A DNA stretch of 12,417 bases, from IMG/VR virus record IMGVR_UViG_2617270966_000008; one strand, written 5' to 3'. Numbering within the stretch: position 1 is the stretch's first letter; each line of letters starts with the position of its first letter. Below the pieces are notes generated by a model. It did no database searches. It was given only the letters and a program-made list of their open reading frames with translations, and was not told the DNA's origin. Origin of the DNA: a virus. Taxonomy: Duplodnaviria; Heunggongvirae; Uroviricota; Caudoviricetes. Shown here piece after piece: positions 1 through 12,417 of this stretch. A program made the position numbers and the translations under genes.

Positions 1-207
1 GGTTGCCCGGCATCCAACGCCATTCATGGCCATATCAATGATTTTCTGGTGCGTACCGGGTTGAGAAGCGGTGTAAGTGAACTGCAGTTGCCATGTTTTA
101 CGGCAGTGAGAGCAGAGATAGCGCTGATGTCCGGCAGTGCTTTTGCCGTTACGCACCACCCCGTCAGTAGCTGAACAGGAGGGACAGCTGATAGAAACAG
201 AAGCCAC
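1..207 (-). CDS. insA: IS1 InsA (partial; 69 N-terminal codons, 3' end off-window)
   Basis: Minus-strand frame open from 207 to the window edge, GTG start at 205-207. Translation (M)[68 protein letters not shown] matches InsA as recalled. Absent from the ORF track because it has no stop in the window. Confidence 0.85.
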
Positions 208-262
208 TGGAGCACCTCAAAAACACCATCATACACTAAATCAGTAAGTTGGCAGCATCACC
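1..262 (-). mobile_element. IS1 insertion sequence, left-end portion (terminal inverted repeat plus 5' part of insA); rest of element lies beyond window start
   Basis: Reverse complement of 240-262 reads GGTGATGCTGCCAACTTACTGAT, which matches the IS1 terminal inverted repeat as I recall it. The adjoining minus-strand frame encodes the InsA N-terminus. Element boundary at 262/263. Confidence 0.9.
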
Positions 263-356
263 TAAAACCGGCGGCAATGGACGACCAGGTCACATCTTCA
301 TGATTATTAGCCGCCCATGCCCCCCAACGCTCAAGAACCATCTGAATATCACGCAT
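263..356 (-). pseudogene. Q-like late antiterminator gene truncated by the IS1 insertion (31 native codons remain)
   Basis: ATG at 354-356 (minus) preceded by GGAG at 364-367. Encodes [31 protein letters not shown], then runs into the IS1 end and stops at once (AGG TGA). The peptide matches my recollection of the N-terminus of Qin/DLP12/933W-type Q antiterminators; not verified. Confidence 0.5.
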
Positions 357-373
357 CAACTTACTCCACAAAA

Positions 374-1423
374 TTAGGCCAGCACACCAATTGCCAGCGC
401 GCGATCGATAAATCGAAAAATCAGCTCCAGTTGGGAGCCATACTTCTCTTCAAATGCCACGGTATCCGTATGCAACTCGTCGTGATGCTTTCTGCACAAA
501 GGCAACACAAAGAGATCATGTGCTTTGGTTCCCATTCCGCCCTGCCCGTGACCAATCAGATGATGCGGATCGTCGGCTGGCATACCGCAGCAAGCACACG
601 GCTGTGTCTTAACCCAGCGTGTGTATTTCTCCTTAACCCAACGGTGACGTTTAGGCAGCTTCATGAAAGATTCCGGAGACTCTGGATCAACGGTGATGCT
701 TACCACCGTCTTTTCCTGTGATGGGTTTTGTTGCTGGTGGGCGTGAGGCAACGGTGCAAGATTTTTTGTGCGCTGTTTCAATATGCTGGTGGCGGTCTGC
801 TCTCCCGGTACGATGTCGCTTTCGCGGTACACCGAGCAGTTTTTTTCCGCTGGTAATCCCAGCGAGCGACGTAATACCACTTCCGGTAGCGCGTCCGCCA
901 CCTGATTGCGGACCGCCCACCAGGATAATTCAGCCAGAGATAATTCACGCTCCTGCGTACCGCTTATTGCGTGACCGATGACGTCAATCATCCATGCTGA
1001 CAGGTTTTGATGAGCAAGTTGCTCGAGTGATTCGGATGTCTGGTCACGCAGCTGGTTGTCGCAGTGCCAGCACAACACCATTGCGCCGGTACCATAACGG
1101 TGAATAACGGTTTCGCTGTGATGATAATCGCCGTGTGGCCACTGGCAGGATTTAATATGGCGCAACAGCCAGTCAGACAATGCACCAGCACCACCAGCAG
1201 CACGAATTACCCGTGCGTTACTGAAAAACGGCAGCAATGTTTTGTCTTCCACCAGCGGCTGGCGAACGGCAGGAACGACCCCGGACGGCAGATTACGCAT
1301 GCTTTTCGGTTCCGGCTCCACCAGTACCCGGGTATTGTGGAATACCGGCATGGATTCACGGCCCGGCTTAACGACCACCAGCCCGAGTTCCGGTACCAGA
1401 ACAGGTCGAAGTAATACCCGCAC
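374..1423 (-). CDS. ydfU: DUF968-family prophage protein (YdfU-like), 349 aa, with HNH-like Cys/His motifs
   Basis: Long minus ORF. GTG start at 1421-1423 preceded by GGAGG at about 5-nt spacing. C-terminal motif CACCG...[10 protein letters not shown]...[11 protein letters not shown]. Length and position (just upstream of Q) match Qin ydfU as recalled. Confidence 0.7.
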
Positions 1424-1424
1424 G

Positions 1425-1703
1425 TTACCTCCAGATGCGTTGCTGGAATGTACGGGACGGACGCGGTGGGCGTTCGGAGTAAGGCAATCTGACTGAGATT
1501 ATCCAGTGACGGTAGTCGAGACTAAGAGCTTTCTTAACCTCGTATCCGCGCCTGCGGTAACACTGAATTATCCATTCAGCCTGCTCTTCAGTGCATGGAG
1601 GGTGCTGGAACCATTCAGACTTGAATGCGTGAGAATACCGCTCGTGCGTGCAGGCAAGAACGGGCGAATTATCAGAATTGTAATATTTTACGTTGCGTGC
1701 CAT
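1425..1703 (-). CDS. hypothetical prophage protein, 92 aa
   Basis: ATG at 1701-1703 with GGAGA RBS upstream. Its stop lies 1 nt before the GTG of the next gene (TAACGTG), suggesting translational coupling. No family recognised. Confidence 0.55.
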   Translation of the reverse strand: MARNVKYYNSDNSPVLACTHERYSHAFKSEWFQHPPCTEEQAEWIIQCYRRRGYEVKKALSLDYRHWIISVRLPYSERPPRPSRTFQQRIWR

Positions 1704-1769
1704 CGGTTTTCTCCGGTGGCACGGTGTTACTCAGCGGGAGTTCAGCCCCGCGCAAGATTGTAGATGAGT

Positions 1770-2021
1770 TTATTCTTCTGCAAAAGCTGAAAAGCCTGCT
1801 TTTATTCCGATCTCTTTCAGTGCCTGTAATGAAGTGACAAACTCACCTTCGCGCAAGATAAATCCGTCTGTCACTCGACCATCCACAAAATTAATTAACG
1901 CAGCCCCATTCTTTCGCAAACACATAATGCGGTAATGACTAACAAGATTTCCATTTTCAACGCACACAGCATAGAGGCCATCTTCACAAAAAATTTTACG
2001 CAGTTCTTCGATGTTCATCAT
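1770..2021 (-). CDS. rem: Rem-like small prophage protein, 83 aa
   Basis: ATG-ATG start at 2016-2021 with GGAAGGA RBS. Length and position (between hok and the ydfU-like gene) match Qin rem as recalled; sequence identity not verified. Confidence 0.55.
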   Translation of the reverse strand: MMNIEELRKIFCEDGLYAVCVENGNLVSHYRIMCLRKNGAALINFVDGRVTDGFILREGEFVTSLQALKEIGIKAGFSAFAEE

Positions 2022-2089
2022 CAGAATCCTTCCGGATAATTAGCTCTCCCCTTTAAGGGACCATCCCTCTTATCCCTGCGCGCTACTTA

Positions 2090-2119
2090 AGTATTTTTGA
2101 TTCTATTCCGGCACCGTCC
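2090..2119 (-). promoter_or_regulatory. candidate sigma70 promoter for the rem block (minus strand: TTGAAG, 18-nt spacer, TAGAAT)
   Basis: Hexamers read on the minus strand between the upstream terminator and the rem RBS. Pattern match only. Confidence 0.3.
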
Positions 2120-2137
2120 AGAACTTCAAACGCGTTG

Positions 2138-2167
2138 AAAATAAAAACAAAAACCCGCCGAAGCGGG
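2138..2167 (-). terminator. Rho-independent terminator downstream of hok (minus strand)
   Basis: Minus-strand RNA AACCCGC-UUCG-GCGGGUU followed by UUUUUGUUUUUAUUUU, about 70 nt after the hok stop. Confidence 0.65.
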
Positions 2168-2237
2168 TTAAGTGCGGGTGCGTTGAGGATGCCTGCCACA
2201 TCAGAGGTGGCGAGGGGTTTCTCCCTCGCCGGGTCTC

Positions 2238-2393
2238 TTACTCCTCAGGTTCGTAAGCTGTGAAGACAGCGACCTCCGTCTGGCCGGTTCGGATTCGTAC
2301 CTCGCAGAGGTCTTTCCTCGTTACCAGTGCCGTCACTATGACGGTTAAACAGATGACGATCAGGGCGATTAACATCGCCTTTTGCTGCTTCAT
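2238..2393 (-). CDS. hokD: Hok-family type I toxin (HokD/RelF-like), 51 aa
   Basis: MKQQKAMLIALIVICLTVIVTALVTRKDLCEVRIRTGQTEVAVFTAYEPEE: single TM segment then the LTRK-LCE-R-G-EV-A-YE Hok signature. ATG at 2391-2393 with AAGGAG RBS. The track's 70-aa ORF is an in-frame upstream extension from an ATG at 2448-2450. Confidence 0.85.
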   Translation of the reverse strand: MKQQKAMLIALIVICLTVIVTALVTRKDLCEVRIRTGQTEVAVFTAYEPEE

Positions 2394-2604
2394 AGCCTGC
2401 TTCTCCTTGCCTTCCGGCACGTAAGAGGCTAACCTACATGTGTCTAGCATGAAATTGGCCTCAGATTAATGTTAAGCGTCTTGCAGGACGCGTAATGTTA
2501 ACTGGGGCTTTTCTCTATCTGCCTTTGGTGTTCATGCCCGAGGCAGATAGCCTCAAGCACCCGCAGGCATTCTACTTAACTCCCGTTACCTCGCCAATAT
2601 GCAA

Positions 2605-2694
2605 TCAGTCAGAAAGGCGATCCATAAGAACAATGGCAAGAAAATAAATCGCCATTACAGCCGCAATAGCCAGCGCACATTTGAGAACCAGCAC
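2605..2694 (-). CDS. candidate small hydrophobic peptide, 29 aa (MLVLKCALAIAAVMAIYFLAIVLMDRLSD)
   Basis: Below the ORF-track size cut-off. GTG at 2692-2694 sits 5 nt after a perfect AGGAGG (2700-2705). Predicted single TM helix with a charged C-terminus. In-frame stop upstream at 2749-2751, no ATG alternative. Confidence 0.3.
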   Translation of the reverse strand: MLVLKCALAIAAVMAIYFLAIVLMDRLSD

Positions 2695-3052
2695 CACAAC
2701 CTCCTGTATTGGACGTACACCAGTCCTGATAAATATGAGGCTGTCTCGTCAGTGATTCAATGCAACTATTAGATATAGTTTCTCTGATTTTGTTCTGTGG
2801 AAATGAAAAACAGCAACCAGTCACCACCAGCACTTCTTTAAATATGCAAAGTCCGATAACAAGCTAACCTTCTAGTCCGCTTTTATTTAGCGAGAAGCGG
2901 ACATTTACTATTCATACCTGTTTAGCTCCACTCTCTTTTGAGTGTTCCGATTGTCCGTACATCATTGAGTGCTCATCCGGTGTGTTTGAGAGGTGCATTC
3001 CAGATCCGAATAGCACCTCGCTTACCATAAAAAACTCTTAATACTCTTTTTC

Positions 3053-5449
3053 CTAAGATAACCTTGGTGGTTCGCCAATGCTTTTTAACAAGGAATTGTA
3101 TTGATGCGGATCTGACGCATAAATCTTGTCTAACACGTAGTTGGCTACCTTGGAAATTTCTGGAATCTCCACAGGTTTGAATCCGCGATCAGGAATTGAT
3201 TCGAGATGTGAAAACTCGTTGTTAAGTCTATTCACAAGAGCTATCGCTGTTGAATCCTCTTCGCCAAAGAATTTCTTGATCCGTTCAAAGGCATCGTTCT
3301 TGTCATCATGGTGCGGGAACTTAAAGAACAGAAATGCCTCAAGGAACTTGCGGAGGTTGTTACCGAATCCATAGTATGGTTCATGAGATTCATTCGCTCC
3401 AACTTGATTACGGCACTTGTAAATCTGATGAAACAGGTAGTTGAATTCAGTGATGTAGTCTCGCAAATATGAAGGCATCAGGGAAATCTGACTTGTCCCT
3501 CCATTTCTCTCAACGATTAAATGTTGGCATCCACCATGATTCCTTTCATTAGGAAGTGATATTTTCTTCAGATATTTCAAGAAATCTAGGTTGTGGGTGG
3601 ATATAAAAAGCTGCTTATAGCGATAGCTGTTTGTTCCATCTAAATTCTTAATGGGTTTCGCAATCAGGCTTTCAATCAAGCTGAACATGAAGAAAATGTG
3701 ATTTCCGTCAAGACTGGAAATCGGGTCATCTATATAAATGATCAGATCCTTACCTTTGCTTTCAGGCTCTTCCAACTTGGCCATGAAGTAGCAGAAAGCA
3801 ATCAGGCTGCATTCTCCTTCGCTCAAGTTGTAGGCTGATTTGCCATCTCTGGTGACTTCAAACTTAACCGAAGTATTCTCAACATTGTCTTTTGCTTCAA
3901 GTTCGATGCCGTCATGACCAAAAAAGTGGCTGAGCAACTCATTGACTCGCTCCGCGCCCTTGCGTTCATCCTTCTGCTGCCCCTGTAAACGGGTCACTTC
4001 GGTTTCTTGTTCAAAAATTTCAGCTTCAGTTTCGGTAAAGGCAGTGTTGGCTGTGTTAGCATCTGACTTAAGACTGGCAATACGGGCGAATTCATTATCG
4101 TAGGTGATGTCTGCGATAAAAGACGCCACATCGGTAAGCCGGAGAGATTCTCGTGCAGTGCTTTTATCGTTCTCCAGCGAAATTGTGCGGTCATTATTTT
4201 TGACGATCAGAGCATTGATGTCGCCCACACATTGCTGAATTGCTGTCGGATTATGAATATAGACAGGCATGAGAACCTGCTGAAAAATAGCGTTCTTTCT
4301 CTTATCCAACGCCGCCTGCAGAGCTTTGAGGTCCTGCATGTAGTCTTTCAGATGTTCAGAAAGTTCTATCTTGCTGTTTTCAAATAATATTTTCTCTTCT
4401 GCGTAGAATTTATCGCCAGTCAAAGTCAAGAAGTTAGGAATGGCTTGGATTTCGGTGGTGATAGAAGTCAGACATGAATCGATACTTGACTCCAGAGCCG
4501 AGGATTCCTTACTGAAGTGAGAGCCTAATACCTGCCAGATATCATGAGGAAGATTCTGACGACAGAATGCGCAAGTGTCCCGCTTATCTTTGTGCAGCGG
4601 TATACCTTCCTTCACCCACATCTGGAGAGCCGTCTCATTCAACAACTCCTGAATTGGCAGGGTAGGCTCAATCAATCTTAAAAGGAGTTCTTCAGCTTCT
4701 TTGCTTATTGATTCGATGTTGAGGTTTATCGATACGGTATCGTTAATATCAGGCAAGGCCTCTTGCTTCAAGAGATTGACCTTGGCTGCTTGTTCTTCGG
4801 TTGTCAGAGCCCTGAAGCCAGGTTTTTTGACTAAACCAATGTCTTTTTTGATGCTTTCTATGTTGTAGACAGCAGGGCCGTAGATGCGATTCTGTTTAAT
4901 CTTATTGTTAGCATGAGAACGAAGTTTGCCCTCTAGAGCATCAGACGCAGTTTTATGATTGTCTTTGGTTCGATCTCGCTCTTTCTTTTTAGCTTCAAGC
5001 TCATGTCGGAGACCCGCCTTCGATTCAACACTGCCTAACCTAGTTTGAATTGCGGTAATGGCATCTTCGATTTCTTTATTCTTTTCACCAACGATAGCAA
5101 ACGTCTTGATCTCGCCGTCGGTCTGATTGACCAAGAAGTTTAGGTTATCGCTCACAAAATCCCGGTTGTAGACGCGAACATCGTAGCCATGACCAGCAAG
5201 ACCTACCTGTGTCACATCACCTTTGTCACCACGAATAGTAAAATTTGGGTCCACGTAGTTATGTGGAATGCGCCCCGTTTCCAAAGCGCGGAAAATTCGT
5301 GAGAGTGTAGTTTTACCAGAGTAGTTCCGTCCGTAGAGGATGTTAAGCCTCTTGAAATTCTGGACATTGTTACCTGCATCCTTAAGGCTATTTTTCCAAC
5401 TGAGGTCCGTAAAACTACCGAAACTACCGATGTCAACCTGACTAAACAT
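3053..5449 (-). CDS. Rad50/SMC-like ABC ATPase with internal coiled coil, CxxC zinc hook and C-terminal effector domain; RloC/PrrC-like (AAA_13-type) putative anticodon nuclease / anti-phage protein
   Basis: Residue numbers follow the 800-aa track ORF. Walker A GRNYSGKTT (42-50); long K/E/L-rich region with C295-x2-C298; C-terminal ABC signature-like LSEGE, Walker B LIIYIDDP, D-loop SSLD, H-loop ISTHN; then a roughly 170-aa domain with RKFLE...FPHH and RNHGGCQH motifs. Probable start is the ATG at 5447-5449 (GGAAG RBS), two codons inside the track's GTG. Gene looks AT-richer than its neighbours by eye. Confidence 0.8.
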   Translation of the reverse strand: MFSQVDIGSFGSFTDLSWKNSLKDAGNNVQNFKRLNILYGRNYSGKTTLSRIFRALETGRIPHNYVDPNFTIRGDKGDVTQVGLAGHGYDVRVYNRDFVSDNLNFLVNQTDGEIKTFAIVGEKNKEIEDAITAIQTRLGSVESKAGLRHELEAKKKERDRTKDNHKTASDALEGKLRSHANNKIKQNRIYGPAVYNIESIKKDIGLVKKPGFRALTTEEQAAKVNLLKQEALPDINDTVSINLNIESISKEAEELLLRLIEPTLPIQELLNETALQMWVKEGIPLHKDKRDTCAFCRQNLPHDIWQVLGSHFSKESSALESSIDSCLTSITTEIQAIPNFLTLTGDKFYAEEKILFENSKIELSEHLKDYMQDLKALQAALDKRKNAIFQQVLMPVYIHNPTAIQQCVGDINALIVKNNDRTISLENDKSTARESLRLTDVASFIADITYDNEFARIASLKSDANTANTAFTETEAEIFEQETEVTRLQGQQKDERKGAERVNELLSHFFGHDGIELEAKDNVENTSVKFEVTRDGKSAYNLSEGECSLIAFCYFMAKLEEPESKGKDLIIYIDDPISSLDGNHIFFMFSLIESLIAKPIKNLDGTNSYRYKQLFISTHNLDFLKYLKKISLPNERNHGGCQHLIVERNGGTSQISLMPSYLRDYITEFNYLFHQIYKCRNQVGANESHEPYYGFGNNLRKFLEAFLFFKFPHHDDKNDAFERIKKFFGEEDSTAIALVNRLNNEFSHLESIPDRGFKPVEIPEISKVANYVLDKIYASDPHQYNSLLKSIGEPPRLS

Positions 5450-5468
5450 GAACACTTCCGTCGCGCTG

Positions 5469-5496
5469 GCTATAGATTGTCAATTTGCAATTGAAA
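5469..5496 (-). promoter_or_regulatory. candidate promoter for the RloC-like gene (minus strand: TTTCAA, 16-nt spacer, TATAGC)
   Basis: Hexamers read in the 89-nt gap upstream of the ATPase gene. Pattern match only. Confidence 0.3.
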
Positions 5497-5544
5497 CAGA
5501 TTGTTAACCCAGTCTACTCTGAGTTTAAGGAATGTTTAAATAGG

Positions 5545-5973
5545 TTATTGATACTTCAATAAATATCGAACATTTCCCTGATAAAAAGACAATATACGCT
5601 GCATAACTTCGCTTTTACGGCACTCACTACAAATTATATTATGATGTCTGTCGTAACGACGTATTTCTCCGTCAGCTAATGACCAGATAAGGTCTGGATC
5701 AACCGCAGCGGGTTTCTTCACCTTTGCCCTCGAGAGTTTTTTGCGGGCGTTTTGCCAGTCCTTACGGGCCTGTTCAGACGGGAATAACCCGTAACCAGAG
5801 TTGTATACATCGCCACTGGCAACCAGCTCTCTGGCAAGAGCGCTCATCAGATATCTTGTCGCACCTGTCTTGGCTTCCAGTTGCCGTAACGTCTCACGAC
5901 CGCTCTGGCGCACGAGTTCCACCACCTGCCCTTTAATTTTTTCCCGCTCTTCTTGTGTAAAAACTTTTGCCAC
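5545..5973 (-). CDS. hypothetical protein, 142 aa, possible HTH-like N-terminus and C-terminal Cys pair
   Basis: GTG start at 5971-5973 preceded by AAGGGGGA RBS. No family recognised. Lies between the O-like replication gene and the ATPase gene. Confidence 0.65.
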   Translation of the reverse strand: MAKVFTQEEREKIKGQVVELVRQSGRETLRQLEAKTGATRYLMSALARELVASGDVYNSGYGLFPSEQARKDWQNARKKLSRAKVKKPAAVDPDLIWSLADGEIRRYDRHHNIICSECRKSEVMQRILSFYQGNVRYLLKYQ

Positions 5974-6013
5974 AAGTCCCCCTTAAAATTACCTCATGAC
6001 CTGAAATCAACAC

Positions 6014-6979
6014 TTATCCCCTGAAACCAGGCGGAATTTCGGTATCCGGTTCAGAAATATGATTCACACAACGCTTTATTGGCGAACGCCCCAGGCGAAT
6101 AACCAGCTCATCCCATTTTTCGCGAAGCTTTGACGGACTCATGATGTTTTTGACCCAGAATGGATCTCGCTGTACCCGACCAAACATTTCGCAAATTTGT
6201 CTGTGGCTTCTGCCATCCAGCATCCGCATTGTGCGCACGTCATTGGCCCAGGCAGTCCAGTTAGGCTCTTTTGGTCGCATGATCTCGCCATCATCACTGG
6301 CGGCCTGTTCGTAGAGACCCACGATCCGCCCCCAGATCCACTGCGCACACGCCAAATCCTCCCTGCTACCCCACTGCCGTTTTTTCGCACTAAACACAAC
6401 TGCGTCAGGGTGCCGGATTAAAAAATCCTGTTCAGCCGTCTGCTGGTCCGGTTGCAAAGCTTCCGGACGAAAAGTGTTTTTATTCTCTGTAGTAATCTCT
6501 GTTGTATTCTCTGTAGGATCATCGGGCCATTTTGACCCGATGACATTGGGTCGTTTTGAACCAATGGAGCGTTTCATTTTGACCTCTTCCATCATGTCAT
6601 TTTGACCTGATGGAGCGACGCATTTTGAACTGATGGATTCGCTCAATTTGCCACCATCTAAAAGATCGCTCCCATAGTTGATCGTGTAGAAATTGGTCAT
6701 GTCGCGCTTTGATTTATTGAGCTTTTCGCAACGCAAAAGCCCCAGCGTTTTCAGACTTGCAAACGCGCGCTTTAACGTTGACTCTGACCAGAACGGGAAC
6801 TGCGCCAGCCATTGTTCCGTTGTGTTGTAAATCCAGCGAACACCATCACATTCCATGCCGGAATTGGTATCTCTCAACCAGTAATGCAGTTGCTGCAACA
6901 CAATGGCTTCGTTTAAGCCAATCTTCATCGCAAGCTGTGTGTTTATAACCAGTGGGCGTTCAGCAAAAAGAAGGCTCAT
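6014..6979 (-). CDS. lambda-O-like replication initiator (replisome organiser); origin iterons lie inside the gene
   Basis: Open frame to 7033 (TTG), but the ATG at 6977-6979 with a weak GGATGG RBS is the likelier start (321 aa). N-terminal winged-helix-like region, central T/E/N-rich linker encoded by the repeat region, conserved-looking C-terminal domain. Iteron array inside the gene supports the call. Confidence 0.7.
   Translation of the reverse strand: MSLLFAERPLVINTQLAMKIGLNEAIVLQQLHYWLRDTNSGMECDGVRWIYNTTEQWLAQFPFWSESTLKRAFASLKTLGLLRCEKLNKSKRDMTNFYTINYGSDLLDGGKLSESISSKCVAPSGQNDMMEEVKMKRSIGSKRPNVIGSKWPDDPTENTTEITTENKNTFRPEALQPDQQTAEQDFLIRHPDAVVFSAKKRQWGSREDLACAQWIWGRIVGLYEQAASDDGEIMRPKEPNWTAWANDVRTMRMLDGRSHRQICEMFGRVQRDPFWVKNIMSPSKLREKWDELVIRLGRSPIKRCVNHISEPDTEIPPGFRG
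6481..6665. repeat. putative replication origin: three tandem 12-mers (6481-6516) followed by about five iterons of consensus ATTTTGACC-GATGG at 23-24-bp spacing
   Basis: TATTCTCTGTAG / TAATCTCTGTTG / TATTCTCTGTAG in tandem. TTTTGA cores start at 6540, 6564, 6587, 6610 and 6633, with a degenerate sixth near 6655. Arrangement mirrors ori-lambda inside gene O. Confidence 0.6.
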
Positions 6980-7481
6980 AATTCCATCCAGCTTTTTGTT
7001 GGTATTGCTGTCGATACGCAAGCTTGAAAGCAATTGCTTTTTCTATAAGTTCGTCAGTTTCACGATCTACAACGGCAGGATCTGCAAAAAGCAGTCCGGA
7101 CTCCACCACATCGCCATATTCTTTATTTAACCCAGCGATCATGTACGTAATGCTCTTTCCGTCACTAATTTCACGATACAACCTGAAATCACTAATCCGG
7201 ATAGCCTCCATAATTGCAGGCACTAGCGCTGTGAACTTTTCACGCTTATCCCTGGTGTCGATAGCCTTCCAGCGTTCAAATATCTTCACTCGATTAACGC
7301 TAAGCGCTCGCTGATCAACCGCGCCACCTTCATATGTGACACGCTGAACATCGATGTTCGGGCGCTCTTTCAAAGCCCAGAATGCTTCAGTGATTAATAT
7401 CGTCGCCTGCTCCTGTGTCATTCCTGGTCGACATATCCAGGCATCCAGAGCCTCACGAGCCTGTTCAGGAGTGATTTTCAT
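6960..7481 (-). CDS. hypothetical early protein, 173 aa (occupies the cII/YdaT-like position after the cro-like gene)
   Basis: ATG at 7479-7481; overlaps the dicC stop by 17 nt and the O-like gene start by about 20 nt. No family recognised. Confidence 0.65.
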   Translation of the reverse strand: MKITPEQAREALDAWICRPGMTQEQATILITEAFWALKERPNIDVQRVTYEGGAVDQRALSVNRVKIFERWKAIDTRDKREKFTALVPAIMEAIRISDFRLYREISDGKSITYMIAGLNKEYGDVVESGLLFADPAVVDRETDELIEKAIAFKLAYRQQYQQKAGWNYEPSFC

Positions 7482-7695
7482 TGTTCAACCGCCCCGCCCG
7501 CTTCGTCTTACGATATTCGTCATAAACTTTGGGATCATACTGAAGCTCCCCGCCAGATGCCTCCTGTAGACGCATCGCGCGACCTTCGGGAACTAAATCC
7601 CCTTTCCAGCTATAAAGCGAAGCCAAACGAATACCTGCTGCTTGTGCAAGTTTTGTTTTTGAACCGAAATACAAAAGAGCGTCAGTTTTAAGCAT
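7465..7695 (-). CDS. dicC: DicC, Cro-like regulator of the dicB operon, 76 aa
   Basis: MLKTDALLYFGSKTKLAQAAGIRLASLYSWKGDLVPEGRAMRLQEASGGELQYDPKVYDEYRKTKRAGRLNNENHS matches DicC as recalled. Divergent from dicA. Confidence 0.9.
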   Translation of the reverse strand: MLKTDALLYFGSKTKLAQAAGIRLASLYSWKGDLVPEGRAMRLQEASGGELQYDPKVYDEYRKTKRAGRLNNENHS

Positions 7696-7710
7696 TTAAA
7701 ACACCTTAGA

Positions 7711-7776
7711 TGTTAGTCATGGCTAACAAAATAGATGTTAACAAAAACATAGTCAATACGATTTAGCATTAGCTAA
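7711..7776. promoter_or_regulatory. dicA/dicC divergent promoter-operator region with three palindromic operator-like sites
   Basis: TGTTAGTCATGGCTAACA (7711-7728), TGTTAACA (7736-7743) and TTAGCATTAGCTAA (7763-7776) in the 83-bp gap between the dicC and dicA start codons. Confidence 0.6.
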
Positions 7777-7778
7777 CT

Positions 7779-8186
7779 ATGGATACAAAAAATTTAACCA
7801 TCGGCGAACGCATTAGGTATCGTCGGAAAAACCTCAAACACACCCAAAGGTCTCTTGCTAAAGCCCTGAAAATCTCCCATGTGTCTGTATCACAATGGGA
7901 ACGGGATGATAGTGAACCTACAGGGAAGAACCTTTTTGCCCTCAGCAAAGTATTGCAATGCTCACCAACATGGATTCTATTTGGCGATGAAGACAAGCAA
8001 CCAACACCACCTGTTGAGAAGCCGGTTGCCTTAGCCCCCAAAGAACTAGAGCTCCTTGAGCTGTTTAATGCACTGCCAGAATCAGAACAGGATACCCAGC
8101 TCGCCGAAATGCGAGCTCGAGTAAAAAATTTCAATAAACTCTTTGAAGAATTACTAAAAGCCCGTCAGCGGACAAATAAAAGATAA
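7779..8186 (+). CDS. dicA: DicA, P22 c2-like HTH repressor of the dicB operon, 135 aa
   Basis: MDTKNLTIGERIRYRRKNLKHTQRSLAKALKISHVSVSQWERDD... matches DicA as recalled; HTH_XRE-type N-terminus. Confidence 0.95.
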   Translation: MDTKNLTIGERIRYRRKNLKHTQRSLAKALKISHVSVSQWERDDSEPTGKNLFALSKVLQCSPTWILFGDEDKQPTPPVEKPVALAPKELELLELFNALPESEQDTQLAEMRARVKNFNKLFEELLKARQRTNKR

Positions 8187-8208
8187 CATCATCAATGAGT
8201 TATCTTTT
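8178..8208 (+). terminator. weak hairpin terminator overlapping the dicA stop
   Basis: AAAGATAAC-(11-nt loop)-GTTATCTTT followed by TATTATAT. AT-rich stem, so efficiency is uncertain. Confidence 0.35.
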
Positions 8209-8221
8209 ATTATATCAATTA

Positions 8222-8275
8222 TGTTAGCCATAACATACAAAATCACTTGACCAATATGTTAGTTATGACTAATCT
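8222..8275 (+). promoter_or_regulatory. candidate dicB-operon promoter (TTGACC, 17-nt spacer, TAATCT) overlapped by TGTTAG-type operator palindromes
   Basis: TGTTAGCCATAACA (8222-8235) and TTAGTTATGACTAA (8259-8272, inside the spacer) share half-sites with the dicA/dicC operators. -35 at 8247-8252, -10 at 8270-8275. Confidence 0.45.
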
Positions 8276-8352
8276 TGTTTACATCAACACACCGCACGGT
8301 GTTCTCAGCAAACAGTTCCGCCACCCCGGCGTTAAGGGGAAATGAGGTCAGC

Positions 8353-8508
8353 ATGGATACTATCGATCTTGGCAACAGCGAATCTCTGGTATGTGGCGTG
8401 TTCCCCAATCAGGACGGCACGTTCACCGCGATGACGTATACCAAAAGCAAAACGTTTAAAACCGAAAATGGTGCCCGTCGCTGGCTGGAAAGAAACTCAG
8501 GTGAGTGA
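8353..8508 (+). CDS. ydfA: YdfA, small dicB-operon protein, 51 aa
   Basis: MDTIDLGNSESLVCGVFPNQDGTFTAMTYTKSKTFKTENGARRWLERNSGE; ATG at 8353 with GAGG RBS 5 nt upstream. The track's 77-aa ORF is an upstream extension. Confidence 0.8.
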   Translation: MDTIDLGNSESLVCGVFPNQDGTFTAMTYTKSKTFKTENGARRWLERNSGE

Positions 8509-8509
8509 T

Positions 8510-9085
8510 ATGGATTTCGACACAATCATGGAAAAGGCTTACGAAGAATACTTCGAAGGCCTTGCCGAAGGCGAAGAAGCTCTCAGCTTCAGTGAGTTTA
8601 AACAGGCACTCAGAATAAGAATGTGCTCTCACAATGACGCGGAGCACAAATATGAGAAGCAAAATCAGACCGCAGAAAATTTTGTTCTGGAACCCGGAGA
8701 AACGCTTTTCAAAATTCCCGTTACGTGCCCCATTTGCGGTTTTACATCAGAAGAACTTGACGACTCCTGTAACAATCAGGAAACAACCAAGTATGTCGAA
8801 GATGATACCGAGTGCGCACGAAGAACGATTATATCCACGAGTCCAAACTCCAGGACCAATAAATCTCACCTTGAGAGGGTAATTAATCCACTCCCCCAAA
8901 CCAATAAAAAAGATGCCGGAGGACAAAAAACCCAATGGAACAACGGGATATCTGTCAAAAAAAGACGTTCCATTAAAGACAAACAACGCAGCGCCAACAA
9001 CTGTAAGCGCTTTATACCAGTAATCAATTTTCATGTTCTTAAGCGGATTTATTGGTGGTTGCGACATTGCTTAATGAATCCTTAA
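8510..9085 (+). CDS. YdfB/YdfC-region ORF, continuous 191 codons here: acidic N-terminal part with CPICGF zinc-ribbon-like motif and a basic K/N-rich tail
   Basis: ATG at 8510 directly follows the ydfA stop (TGAtATG). Frame stays open to TAA at 9083-9085. From memory K-12 annotates separate ydfB (42 aa) and ydfC (72 aa) here, so the true extent is uncertain. Confidence 0.4.
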   Translation: MDFDTIMEKAYEEYFEGLAEGEEALSFSEFKQALRIRMCSHNDAEHKYEKQNQTAENFVLEPGETLFKIPVTCPICGFTSEELDDSCNNQETTKYVEDDTECARRTIISTSPNSRTNKSHLERVINPLPQTNKKDAGGQKTQWNNGISVKKRRSIKDKQRSANNCKRFIPVINFHVLKRIYWWLRHCLMNP

Positions 9086-9344
9086 AACTGTGGTGATTTT
9101 AAGGATACCACCTCGCCTGACGTGGTTAAAAGCAGGCACACAACACGAAAGCGCACGGCGAAGTTCGTCTCACTGTACGGTGTCGTTAAATTTAATTCGA
9201 CCGTGCGCTTCCGGTTGTGGCAACCCGCGAAATGGCGCGGCGGTAAGTATGGCGGGGGTATTCCTTCCCCGTTGAGGACACCGAGTTGTCAGGTTGACCA
9301 TACGCTTAAGTGACAACCCCGCTGCAACGCCCTCTGTTATCAAT

Positions 9345-9397
9345 TTTCTGGTGACGTTTGGCGGTATCAGTTTTACTCCGTGACTGCTCTGCCGCCG
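9345..9397 (+). ncRNA. dicF: DicF small regulatory RNA (ftsZ-targeting, Hfq-dependent) with its terminator hairpin
   Basis: TTTCTGGTGACGTTTGGCGGTATCAGTTTTACTCCGTGACTGCTCTGCCGCC followed by GTTTTT matches DicF as recalled. GGCGG/CCGCC stem plus U-run. Ends are approximate. Confidence 0.85.
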
Positions 9398-9571
9398 TTT
9401 TTAAAGTGAATTTTGTGATGCGGTGAATGCGGCTAAGCGCACGCGGAACAGTTAAAACCAAATACAGTGTTATGGGTGGATTCTCTGTATCCGGCGTTAA
9501 TTGTTAACTGGTTAACGTCACCTGGAGGCACTAGGCACTGCATCACAAAATTCATTGTTGAGGACGCGATA

Positions 9572-9760
9572 ATGAAAACGTTATTACCAAACGTTAATAC
9601 GTCTGAAGGTTGTTTTGAAATTGGTGTCACTATCAGTAACCCTGTATTTACTGAAGATGCCATTAACAAGAGAAAACAAGAACGGGAGCTATTAAATAAA
9701 ATATGCATTGTTTCAATGCTGGCTCGTTTACGTCTGATGCCAAAAGGATGTGCACAATGA
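9572..9760 (+). CDS. dicB: DicB cell-division inhibitor (MinC-dependent), 62 aa
   Basis: MKTLLPNVNTSEGCFEIGVTISNPVFTEDAINKRKQERELLNKICIVSMLARLRLMPKGCAQ; GAGGA RBS 6 nt upstream of the ATG. Confidence 0.9.
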   Translation: MKTLLPNVNTSEGCFEIGVTISNPVFTEDAINKRKQERELLNKICIVSMLARLRLMPKGCAQ

Positions 9761-9948
9761 ATTCAGCATTTGCGCTTGTTCTGACAGTTTTTCTTGTTTC
9801 CGGAGAGCCAGTTGATATTGCAGTCAGTGTTCACAGGACAATGCAGGAGTGTATGACTGCAGCAACCGAACAGAAAATTCCCGGTAACTGTTACCCGGTC
9901 GATAAAGTTATTCACCAGGATAATATCGAAATCCCGGCAGGTCTTTAA
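9757..9948 (+). CDS. ydfD: YdfD, small membrane/lysis-associated protein, 63 aa
   Basis: MNSAFALVLTVFLVSGEPVDIAVSVHRTMQECMTAATEQKIPGNCYPVDKVIHQDNIEIPAGL; its start overlaps the dicB stop (ATGA). Confidence 0.85.
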   Translation: MNSAFALVLTVFLVSGEPVDIAVSVHRTMQECMTAATEQKIPGNCYPVDKVIHQDNIEIPAGL

Positions 9949-10041
9949 AACAGTTCCGTAATAAATATCCGGTTTCATTCTTATATGCCAGCAATGGCAG
10001 GGATTTGTTCATCCTTAAATCTGTCATGAGGTTAAAACAAA

Positions 10042-12417
10042 ATGAGTAAAGTCTTTATTTGCGCCGCTATTCCTGACGAACTGGCAACAAGGGAAGAAGG
10101 CGCTGTGGCTGTAGCCACAGCCATTGAAGCTGGCGACGAACGCCGTGCTCGAGCAAAATTTCACTGGCAGTTCCTGGAACATTATCCGGCTGCTCAGGAC
10201 TGCGCTTATAAATTTATTGTCTGCGAGGATAAACCTGGCATACCCCGCCCTGCCCTCGATTCATGGGATGCTGAATATATGCAGGAAAACCGCTGGGATG
10301 AGGAGTCTGCTTCTTTTGTCCCGGTTGAGACTGAATCCGATCCGATGAACGTCACTTTTGACAAGCTGGCCCCTGAAGTACAGAACGCTGTCATGGTTAA
10401 GTTCGACACATGTGAAAACATCACCGTTGATATGGTTATTAGCGCACAGGAATTGTTGCAGGAAGGCATGGCAACATTCGACGGACATATCGTTGAAGCG
10501 TTGATGAAAATGCCAGAAGTTAACGCCATGTATCCGGAGCTTAAGTTGCACGCCATTGGGTGGGTTAAGCATAAATGTATTCCTGGTGCTAAATGGCCCG
10601 AAATTCAGGCAGAGATGCGCATCTGGAAAAAACGTCGCGAAGGTGAACGCAAGGAAACCGGAAAATACACGTCTGTTGTTGATCTCGCCCGCGCCAAAGC
10701 CAATCAACAGTACACTGAAAATTCAACAGGAAAAATCAGCCCGGTCATTGCTGCCATTCATCGCGAATACAAGCAGACATGGAAAACACTGGATGACGAA
10801 CTGGCCTACGCTCTCTGGCCTGGTGATGTAGATGCCGGAAACATTGACAGCAGCATCCATCGCTGGGCAAAAAATGAAGTTATCGACAACGACCGCGAAG
10901 ACTGGAAGCGTATCTCGGCATCAATGCGCAAACAGCCTGATGCCCTTCGCTACGACCGCCAGACTATTTTTGGCCTTGTCCGTGAACGTCCGATCGACAT
11001 TCACAAAGACCCTGTGGCACTGAACAAATACATTACTGAATACCTGACTACAAAGGGCGTGTTTGAAGATGAAGGAACAAATCAGAGCGCAACTGATACT
11101 CTCTCGTCGCCAGTACCAGAAACTGATGCAGTGGAAACGGCAATTCCAGACAACGAAAAAACCGAATGCAAAGTGGAAGTCGAACCATCTGTAGAACGTG
11201 AGGGGCCGTTCTACTTCCTCTTCACCGACAAGGATGGCGAAAAATACGGTCGCGCAAACAAACTTTCTGGTCTGGATAAGGCGCTGTCTGCTGGGGCTAC
11301 TGAAATCACGAAAGAAGAATATTTCGCCCGCAAAAACGGTACATACTCAGGTTCACAACAAAATACTGGTGCATCTGACACGACCGCACAACCAGGGTCA
11401 GTAAAAGTTACCGCTGACGAAGTAAACAAAATTATGCAGGCAGCCAATATCAGCCAGCCTGACGCCGATGAACTGCTTGCAGTATCACGTGGTGAATTTG
11501 TTGAAGGGATTAGCGACCCGAATGATCCGAAATGGGTTAAGGGGATCCAGACCCGCGATTCTGTGAACCAGAACCAGCAAGAAACGGAACAGAACGACCA
11601 GAAAGCGGAACAAAACAGCCCAAATACGCAACAAAACGAGCCAGAAACGAAACAACCTGAACCAGTAGTGCAACAGGAACCGGAAAAGATCTGCACCGCC
11701 TGCGGTCATAGCGGTGGCGGCAACTGCCCTGATTGTGGTGCGGTGATGGGTGACGCAACATACCAGGAAATATTCGATGGAGAGAATCAGCCTGAAGTTC
11801 AGGAAAATGATCCGGAGGAAATGGAAGGCACTGCGCATCAGCACAAGGAGAACACTGGCGGCAATCAGCATCACAATAGCGATAATGAAACTGGCGAGAC
11901 GGCAGATCACTCAATTAAGGTGAACGGTCATCACGAAATCACATCCACCAGCAGGACGTGTGACCATCTAATGATCGACCTTGAAACCATGGGAAAAAAT
12001 CCTGATGCCCCGATCATCTCAATAGGTGCAATATTTTTCGATCCGCAAACCGGAGATATGGGACCGGAATTTAGTAAGACTATCGATCTGGAAACTGCTG
12101 GCGGAGTCATTGATCGGGACACCATTAAATGGTGGCTTAAGCAATCACGCGAAGCGCAATCTGCCATTATGACCGATGAAATCCCGTTAGATGATGCACT
12201 GTTACAATTGCGGGAATTTATCGACGAAAACTCCGGTGAATTTTTTGTTCATGTCTGGGGAAATGGAGCCAACTTCGACAACACGATTTTGCGCCGTTCA
12301 TACGAACGGCAGGGGATCCCCTGCCCGTGGCGTTACTACAACGATCGAGATGTACGCACAATCGTTGAGCTGGGGAAAGCCATAGACTTCGATGCCAGAA
12401 CGGCTATTCCATTCGAA
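10042..12417 (+). CDS. large YdfE/RecE-like prophage protein (5' partial, at least 792 codons, continues past window end): YdfE-like N-terminal domain, Q/N/E-rich linker, C4 zinc ribbon, DnaQ-like (DEDD) 3'-5' exonuclease-type domain
   Basis: Hand translation from the ATG at 10042 gives no stop through 12417. Starts MSKVFICAAIPDELATREEG (YdfE-like as recalled). C551-x2-C554-x7-C562-x2-C565; MIDLETMG (D646, E648) and GNGANFD exonuclease-like motifs. Confidence 0.8.
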   Translation, partial: MSKVFICAAIPDELATREEGAVAVATAIEAGDERRARAKFHWQFLEHYPAAQDCAYKFIVCEDKPGIPRPALDSWDAEYMQENRWDEESASFVPVETESDPMNVTFDKLAPEVQNAVMVKFDTCENITVDMVISAQELLQEGMATFDGHIVEALMKMPEVNAMYPELKLHAIGWVKHKCIPGAKWPEIQAEMRIWKKRREGERKETGKYTSVVDLARAKANQQYTENSTGKISPVIAAIHREYKQTWKTLDDELAYALWPGDVDAGNIDSSIHRWAKNEVIDNDREDWKRISASMRKQPDALRYDRQTIFGLVRERPIDIHKDPVALNKYITEYLTTKGVFEDEGTNQSATDTLSSPVPETDAVETAIPDNEKTECKVEVEPSVEREGPFYFLFTDKDGEKYGRANKLSGLDKALSAGATEITKEEYFARKNGTYSGSQQNTGASDTTAQPGSVKVTADEVNKIMQAANISQPDADELLAVSRGEFVEGISDPNDPKWVKGIQTRDSVNQNQQETEQNDQKAEQNSPNTQQNEPETKQPEPVVQQEPEKICTACGHSGGGNCPDCGAVMGDATYQEIFDGENQPEVQENDPEEMEGTAHQHKENTGGNQHHNSDNETGETADHSIKVNGHHEITSTSRTCDHLMIDLETMGKNPDAPIISIGAIFFDPQTGDMGPEFSKTIDLETAGGVIDRDTIKWWLKQSREAQSAIMTDEIPLDDALLQLREFIDENSGEFFVHVWGNGANFDNTILRRSYERQGIPCPWRYYNDRDVRTIVELGKAIDFDARTAIPFE

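Follow-up and report, generated by a model that had tools for sequence, protein, structure and literature searches.

In phage lambda the early rightward genes run cII-O(ori)-[P]-ren-nin-Q, and the iterons lie inside O. Two phages closer to the DNA described here, mEp460_ev081 (LR597641) and HannyBb (PP925841), share the order Q, ydfU-like, rem, hok/mok, a slot of variable content, LygF (DUF977), O-like, cII-like and cro-like. PhiR42_1, compared from the hok flank through the replication genes, has the same genes in those parts. The Qin prophage of Escherichia coli K-12 is annotated dicC-ydfX-ydfW-flxA-ydfV-relB-relE-hokD-rem-ydfU (NC_000913). We analyzed a 12,417-nucleotide (nt) stretch of a Caudoviricetes record from IMG/VR (IMGVR_UViG_2617270966_000008), called the window below, and in particular the genes between its dicC and hok, which include an 800-amino-acid (aa) ATPase. 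The window very likely represents a near-ancestral early-right operon of a Qin/mEp460-type lambdoid prophage that carries an RloC cassette in the slot, with the K-12 layout derived from such an operon by an insertion and a deletion.

The ATPase has two described points of comparison. Three features define RloC proteins: the motifs of an ABC ATPase, a zinc hook (CxxC) set in a coiled-coil insert, and a triad near the C-terminus, Arg-X3-Glu-X36-52-His, often with a Ser before the His (PMC2610378). Table S1 of the same paper lists an RloC of E. coli APEC O1 beside "phage replication initiation" genes, so an E. coli prophage carrying RloC has a precedent. PrrC, a protein of about 400 aa that has no such insert, is embedded in a type I hsd/prr locus.

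Gene order between dicC and hok compared with K-12 Qin

The window was compared by blastn with K-12 Qin (NC_000913 1632277-1652745). Homology is restricted to three blocks: 374-2407 (94%; ydfU-rem-hokD), 7202-8607 (97%; the 5' part of ydfX, dicC, dicA and ydfA), and 9128-10808 (98%; dicF-dicB-ydfD and the 5' part of ydfE). The interval between the first two blocks, 2408-7201, is not homologous to K-12 (breakpoints 2407/2408 and 7201/7202). An earlier sequence-only reading of the window had stated that ydfX, ydfW, flxA, ydfV and relB-relE lie between dicC and hokD in K-12, and the annotated genome agrees exactly. The same reading had placed a 173-aa gene, an O-like initiator with iterons, a 142-aa gene and an RloC-like ATPase in this interval, with no relBE before hok. 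The open reading frames (ORFs) and family matches bear this out, there is no relBE in the window, and the alignment and breakpoint mapping that it had proposed as a check returned a gene content that is not the same as in K-12. Its interval of 2394-7464 contains the real difference within edges that need correction to 2408-7201; the right edge was set 263 bp too far because 7202-7481 is K-12 ydfX. In 13 complete E. coli genomes 80% or more of the window has a collinear counterpart, so the layout is no assembly artifact, and the possibility of a chimeric window was rejected. The best of these, strain CFE299 (99.0%), carries its prophage beside rspB, the chromosomal site that Qin occupies in K-12, with integrase, excisionase, lysis and head genes present.

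K-12 YdfX (96 aa) matches residues 1-93 of the 173-aa protein with 98% identity (BLASTP). The 173-aa gene (6960-7481, minus strand; YdaT family/cII-like, Pfam YdaT_toxin 4e-6, phrog_163) is therefore full-length ydfX and not a new gene, and on this alignment ydfX is the stump of a ydaT-like gene. It lies next to dicC (7465-7695, minus strand; Cro-like, Pfam P22_Cro, 97.4% DNA identity to K-12), the first gene of the rightward early operon. The O-like replication initiator follows at 6014-6979 (minus strand; 321 aa as relatives annotate it, phrog_391 4.5e-91) and is annotated as "phage replication protein O" in the relative H1. Tandem iterons lie inside its own gene, as in lambda, and form a putative origin at 6520-6650, where repeat families of five to six units of about 23 bp recur at a spacing of about 23 nt (approximately codons 110-153). 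Four exact copies of the core CATTTTGAMC, spaced 23 and 47 nt apart, fall within 6528-6630 and nowhere else; 0.12 would be expected by chance, and none of 200 shuffles reached four. Tandem Repeats Finder did not detect the iterons because they are too divergent, and the array was confirmed by the repeat search and motif count.

No P/DnaC-type helicase loader adjoins the O-like gene: no loader family matched in Pfam, NCBIfam or PHROG searches, and the next gene encodes the 142-aa DUF977/"Ren-like exclusion"/LygF protein (5545-5973, minus strand; Pfam DUF977 1.8e-29, phrog_142), the last of the replication module. The final 21 residues of the O-like protein (6014-6076) resemble the C-terminus of DnaT (NCBIfam E=0.0036, well short of the curated cut-off; also PHROG tails), and the annotators of mEp460 named the O-like protein "Primosomal protein I". 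Since the module has no P/DnaC-type loader, this DnaT-like tail may recruit the helicase-loading machinery of the host. The window thus resembles lambda in having a cII-like gene, an O gene with internal iterons, a Ren-like gene and then a mosaic accessory region before Q, and differs from it in the missing loader, the DnaT-like end of O and the position of hok/sok within the accessory region. It is collinear with mEp460_ev081, HannyBb and PhiR42_1, whose flanks are 93-98% identical at the DNA level and which have another immunity region and other slot cargo. Region 5561-7201 is present at 80% coverage or more in 1,585 of 5,426 E. coli genomes. The sequence-only reading had described a module replacement bringing in a different cargo set; the difference in gene content holds, and the single swapped set does not. 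As judged from its distribution and collinearity, YdaT-O-DUF977 is the ancestral replication module, part of the backbone and not cargo, and K-12 has lost it.

The other side of the interval begins at a complete hok/sok locus, in which the hok coding sequence (2238-2393, minus strand; HokD-type toxin, Pfam HOK_GEF 3e-23, annotated as hokD in H1), an overlapping in-frame 70-aa mok-type ORF (2238-2450, minus strand; annotated mok/"MokW-like" in HannyBb) and the sok antisense/hok-leader element (2388-2562, minus strand; Rfam RF01794, full length, 117 bits) are contiguous, the composition of a type I toxin-antitoxin system. K-12 homology stops at 2407, which leaves K-12 without sok. Rfam searches gave no sok in K-12 Qin, one beside hok in the window, and one 3.3 kb away from hokD in E. 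coli strain 789 (NZ_CP010315).

Strain 789 accounts for the K-12 layout. Its order is hokD-relE-relB-ydfV-flxA-ydfW, an ISNCY transposase remnant, a helix-turn-helix gene, two pseudogenes, a small methyltransferase, DUF977, O-like, YdaT and dicC, and it therefore carries relBE-ydfV-flxA-ydfW and DUF977-O-YdaT at once. Positions 13204-17359 of the K-12 locus (L001) match positions 1-4156 of the strain 789 locus (L009) with 99.95% identity, and K-12 positions 17358-20845 match strain 789 positions 8957-12444 with 99.94%, so that a clean deletion of 4,800 bp separates the two; at the junction the matching blocks overlap by 2 bp. The relE-ydfW block occurs in 1,136 of 5,426 genomes, and in most wild strains the match ends 11 bp before the ydfX junction. 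The ydfW/ydfX junction itself was found in 359 of the 5,426, and those sampled entries whose strain could be recognized are laboratory derivatives of K-12. Prophages of the strain 789 type (that strain and about 780 similar genomes) resemble the window in their full YdaT-O-DUF977 module and in the position of the slot. They differ in having the relBE block between hokD and sok, and the slot cargo of strain 789 is a small S-adenosylmethionine-dependent methyltransferase with pseudogenes, not RloC. We found no description of this deletion intermediate in the literature; its recognition is a routine comparative result.

The insertion has its own boundaries. In strain 789 a 15-mer, ATAGCCTGCTTCTCC, flanks the 3,275-bp relBE-ydfV-flxA-ydfW-ISNCY insert (L009 2071-2085 and 5361-5375), whereas the window has a single copy (2392-2406), and the sok/leader segment of the window (2392-2581) matches L009 5361-5550, 3.3 kb from hokD. 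The 15-mer takes in the ribosome-binding site of hok together with two bases, the first and second, of the start codon, and its duplication means that hokD keeps its translation start though cut off from sok. These alignments identify relBE-ydfV-flxA-ydfW as a separate 3.3-kb insertion between hok and sok, and not as an allele of the replication genes. An article citing Ramisetty & Santhosh 2016 states that integration of relBE truncated an ancestral 70-codon hokD ORF (PMC6379469). Copies of relBE at about 99% identity also occur on plasmids.

Two events in the K-12 lineage would explain these patterns. An insertion of the 3.3-kb relE-relB-ydfV-flxA-ydfW segment with its ISNCY remnant, flanked by the 15-bp duplication, would have separated the hok start from the sok leader. 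A later 4.8-kb deletion from just past ydfW to the middle of the ydaT-like gene would have taken sok, the slot cargo, DUF977 and O, leaving the ydfX stump. K-12 Qin accordingly differs from the window in its insertion and 4.8-kb deletion; it has no sok, no DUF977, no slot cargo and no O gene or iterons, and its ydaT-like gene has lost the 3' half. The near-ancestral order would then be dicC (cro-like), ydaT/cII-like, O-like with iterons, DUF977/Ren-like, slot, hok/sok, rem and ydfU.

The accessory slot and its occupants

Within the interval that differs from K-12, the part between sok and DUF977 varies among relatives that share everything around it. Four close relatives lose homology to the window at 2805-2909, on the left, and regain it at 5546-5561, in the 3' end of DUF977; in the phage comparisons the left edge is 2737 or 2883 and the right edge 5561 or 5572. 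The left ends are ragged and differ by relative (2737, 2805, 2856, 2883 and 2909), and the right edge is tight (5546-5572). From these breakpoints and the base composition, the left flank (2563-2883) is conserved and only about 2884-5560 behaves as exchangeable cargo. This cassette holds a single gene, the ATPase (minus strand), and has a G+C fraction of 0.39-0.45 compared with 0.45-0.55 in the backbone.

The cargo was found in 18 of 5,426 genomes, 16 of them with 99.7-99.9% identity and two with 87.5%. Fifteen of the 16 close matches overlap the DUF977 gene, and one (strain A23) is partial. The 87.5% copies (window 2915-5553) lie in an integrase-bearing island adjoining tRNA-Phe, beside a DEAD/DEAH helicase, and about 100 bp upstream and about 140 bp downstream of the ATPase gene travel with the cassette in both contexts. 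In E. coli 2022CK-00450 the RloC-type cassette of this island (L008 8001-10641; 87.5%) is adjoined by IS1 copies, and the 1,090-aa DEAD/DEAH helicase is accompanied there by a 262-aa hypothetical protein, possibly a further defense pair.

A composite query found both slot flanks together in one place in 581 of 5,426 genomes. The flanks are 91-98% identical and enclose at least 12 unrelated types of cargo, the conserved-flank pattern of a hotspot. Several occupants have PADLOC matches: a DUF262/GmrSD_N protein (NsnA- and PD-T4-2_A-like), an FRG-domain protein (PDC-S15), an AIPR protein (AbiU-like), a split dCTP-deaminase gene pair (dCTPase, 7e-128) and, in phage mEp460_ev081, a PD-T7-1 homolog (4e-157). 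Others are known from annotation, namely a RelA/SpoT-domain protein, a DUF4209 protein, a SIR2 protein, a KwaB-like gene with a hypothetical gene and QueH, a DUF5677 protein, and small methyltransferases, of which that of strain 789 matches the PADLOC type II/orphan methyltransferase model. The HannyBb slot contains small ORFs and a methyltransferase. PD-T7-1 has been validated experimentally (Vassallo et al. 2022); the mEp460_ev081 homolog is full length (L011 3230-4579, plus strand) and is recorded there only as hypothetical. For some cargo, such as QueH, the methyltransferases and DUF7167, a defensive role is not clear.

No flanking repeats were noticed where boundaries were read, and no dedicated repeat search was made across the left edge. 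The ragged left edges (2737-2909), the tight right edge and the lack of noticed repeats argue that the cargo turns over through homologous recombination within the flanks, probably after occasional illegitimate capture, and site-specific integration of cassettes was set aside on the same grounds. The stretch from the hok/sok flank to the 3' end of DUF977 would accordingly be an accessory slot prone to recombination, the counterpart of the beginning of the lambda nin region, in which different strains carry different and mostly anti-phage genes. Known phage-borne defense hotspots likewise have conserved phage flanks, a short variable interval with one to three defense genes, and cargo common to non-phage islands. 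The present slot differs in being lambdoid and in lying after the replication genes, before hok and Q. Our literature search returned no published description of a DUF977-hok slot. We tentatively suggest, as a possibility that falls somewhat short of an even balance, that the interval between DUF977/Ren-like and hok/sok is an uncatalogued defense hotspot of the P2/P4 kind and that RloC serves as a prophage-encoded abortive-infection or superinfection-exclusion factor.

The left flank contains further elements. A promoter-like site for hok mRNA was picked out by a promoter scan at 2597-2569 (minus strand). Just upstream of it, at 2605-2697 (minus strand) and behind a perfect AGGAGG Shine-Dalgarno sequence, is an ORF for a strongly hydrophobic 30-aa peptide, MVLVLKCALAIAAVMAIYFLAIVLMDRLSD, that is absent from K-12; it had no Pfam match and could be a small membrane peptide or toxin. 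About 150 nt past the ATPase stop codon, a GC-rich hairpin with a 10-bp stem (GTCCGCTT...AAGCGGAC, 2875-2902) sits exactly on the commonest left cargo boundary (2883/2884) and may be a terminator or a recombination boundary.

The ATPase gene and the RloC family

The gene in the slot (3053-5455, minus strand) encodes 800 aa from a GTG start, or 798 aa from an ATG at 5449. Pfam AAA_13 spans residues 25-775 (3e-152), and the PADLOC PDC-S06 model PDLC04887 covers residues 3-796 of 800 (E=0, 1,067 bits). PDC-S06 is a single-gene class, and the cassette common to the two genomic contexts holds only the ATPase gene. The protein contains a Walker A motif (GRNYSGKT, 42-49), an LSEGE signature (544-548), a Walker B/D-loop DD (576-577), a switch histidine (His621), a CAFC zinc-hook motif (295-298), and a C-terminal triad R702-x3-E706-x43-S749-H750. 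The ATPase, CxxC and triad motifs are all invariant in 24 homologs from Enterobacterales to Burkholderiales and Geobacterales. A low-confidence structural model predicts an ATPase lobe, helices at 124-512 with a break at about 230-300, a second lobe, and an all-helical C-terminal domain at 662-791.

These features, ATPase motifs, CxxC within a helical insert and C-terminal triad, are those by which RloC is defined, and the homology to the original ortholog set is full length. The motif context H-K-x4-C-A-F-C agrees with the alignment in the supplement of the RloC paper (PMC2610378). A protein of Marinobacter nauticus (locus L071), which is 45% identical over residues 9-795, contains the fragments printed there for the Marinobacter ortholog Q36U84_MARHY (Fig. 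S1, PMC2610378). In a scan of one genome per species, full-length relatives with 42-95% identity were found in many phyla, and homologs with 76-82% identity have been named "wobble nucleotide-excising tRNase" by the Joint Genome Institute (JGI). No RloC-named model exists among the NCBIfam matches, which gave only a sub-threshold RecF-like fragment in the signature/Walker B region, and no model named RloC matched in PADLOC. The ATPase is best filed, on its sequence, as an RloC-family member and putative anticodon nuclease. It resembles RloC of Geobacillus kaustophilus (804 aa; Davidov & Kaufmann 2008, PMC2610378) in size class, ABC motifs, CxxC at about residue 295 and C-terminal triad, and shares with the family a GTG start and a weak ribosome-binding site (PMC2610378). 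As a member of this family, the gene stands alone as a cassette in a lambdoid prophage slot with no restriction-modification (R-M) genes nearby.

PrrC was considered and rejected on size, insert and R-M context. The window has no R-M genes, nor does the 36-kb context in H1. The window protein, at 800 aa, has a helical insert of about 390 residues with CxxC. The PADLOC PrrC model matches only residues 500-631, the ATPase part.

By analogy with the RloC proteins of G. kaustophilus and A. baylyi, the cassette would be expressed in the lysogen, where its product would stay latent. When a phage infects or DNA is damaged, the Rad50-like ATPase and zinc-hook region would switch on the C-terminal anticodon nuclease. 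By cutting wobble nucleotides out of tRNA, this nuclease would halt translation and so abort the infection, protecting the lysogen population. Nuclease activity, trigger and defense phenotype are all presumed here from those two homologs.

Several points weigh against this account as a whole. The order of insertion before deletion is a matter of parsimony and was drawn from one type of intermediate. The putative enrichment of the slot in defense genes was judged from about 25 sampled loci. PDC-S06 is a candidate class only, and we found no paper reporting a test of it. AlphaFold2, run with a 24-sequence alignment, gave a poor model of the ATPase (mean predicted local distance difference test, pLDDT, 56; predicted template modeling score, pTM, 0.36). 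The Rad50-like and HEPN-like folds are therefore putative, and only the predicted secondary structure was used. A sequence search of the Protein Data Bank (PDB) with the ATPase returned nothing at E ≤ 0.01. Sites from the promoter and terminator scan were no commoner than in shuffled sequence, and no convincing -35/-10 pair was seen upstream of the cassette gene, in a region that is conserved between the two genomic contexts.

Alternative explanations, neighboring genes and implications

The contrast with K-12 could have arisen in one step, if a single recombination had exchanged the K-12-type block (ydfX to relE) for an alternative cargo block (the 173-aa gene to the ATPase) within a conserved dicA/dicC/dicB backbone. 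The window and K-12 indeed show only two breakpoints around 2408-7201, with unrelated sequence between. Strain 789 contradicts such an exchange because it is an intermediate, holding both gene sets and differing from K-12 by one clean deletion. Furthermore, the right breakpoint lies inside a gene and leaves a truncated ydfX, and the replication genes (1,585 genomes) and the ATPase (18 genomes) differ in population frequency and have separate boundaries. We regard a single swap as highly improbable. The direction of change might also be reversed, with a K-12-like cryptic Qin having regained the module and its cargo from an incoming mEp460-like phage. Lambdoid prophages recombine freely, and the 98-99% identity that HannyBb shows to 374-2737 and 8282-9964 of the window makes recent exchange with active phages plausible. 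Rescue of this kind would still leave the full module as the functional ancestral form and K-12 as the deleted one, and the window has an uninterrupted hok/sok, only one copy of ATAGCCTGCTTCTCC and no trace of relBE. Such a derived window is very unlikely.

The third alternative concerns the ATPase, which might be a phage DNA-metabolism protein, a Rad50/SbcC-like factor for recombination or repair belonging to the replication module, rather than a defense gene. Its gene comes immediately after the replication genes and has their orientation, its ABC head, long helical insert and CxxC are as in Rad50/SbcC, and the weak match in the signature/Walker B region is RecF-like. A module component would hardly be confined to 16 prophages when 581 or more have this backbone, in a position where unrelated defense-type genes occur elsewhere, nor shared with a non-phage tRNA-Phe island. 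The extra all-alpha C-terminal domain with its invariant R-x3-E...S-H triad is missing from Rad50/SbcC, and no Mre11/SbcD partner gene adjoins the ATPase among the ORFs of the window. We see scarcely any likelihood that this assignment is right, and retain the reading of the window as a near-ancestral operon with an RloC cassette.

The remaining genes extend outward from this interval. On the minus strand, rem (1770-2021) and ydfU/DUF968 (374-1423) were identified from the ORF listing and family searches, with a 92-aa ORF (1425-1703; phrog_1212) between them. Annotations of wild strains include this ORF; K-12 has homologous DNA (94% identical) with no annotated gene. Positions 1-262 match IS1 copies with 100% identity. 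An antiterminator gene (ydfT or Q-family) follows ydfU in related prophages; here IS1 sequence lies about 110 bp past the ydfU stop, so the late-gene antiterminator of the source genome was probably disrupted or displaced. On the plus strand, dicA (7779-8186) is followed by ydfA, DicF (9346-9397; Rfam), dicB, ydfD and an exonuclease gene, as given by the ORF listing and family searches. A second block without a K-12 match, 8608-9127, replaces the 3' end of ydfB and ydfC (520 compared with 399 bp), K-12 having another ydfB/ydfC segment, and is 98.9% identical to HannyBb. On its minus strand an unannotated ORF of 106 aa (8747-9067) encodes three hydrophobic segments; this ORF overlaps a 205-aa plus-strand ORF annotated in HannyBb and had no family match in NCBIfam or PHROG searches. 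The exonuclease gene (10041-12417, plus strand) is uninterrupted to the end of the window, and relatives annotate a gene of 2.47 kb. In K-12 it is cut by IS2, and ydfE is its 5' fragment, ending where homology with the window ends (10808).

The difference from K-12 is real, yet it is ordinary prophage mosaicism. Prophage mosaicism, defense hotspots and RloC are all established, and nothing here is conceptually new. What changes is how the K-12 Qin map is to be read: ydfX would be a stump, and relBE-hokD the scar of an insertion that separated hok from sok. The replication genes missing from K-12 would have gone in one 4.8-kb deletion, whose natural intermediates survive. The comparison also marks out a compact and easily mined accessory slot in lambdoid prophages of a family that is very common in E. 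coli. The slot already holds homologs of validated defense systems and, by sequence, an RloC-type anticodon nuclease, for which direct evidence of a role in phage defense is scant. The slot occurs in hundreds of E. coli genomes, and if it is a defense hotspot, its uncharacterized occupants (DUF4209, DUF5677, FRG/PDC-S15, hypothetical ORFs and RloC/PDC-S06) would form a list of candidate anti-phage genes.

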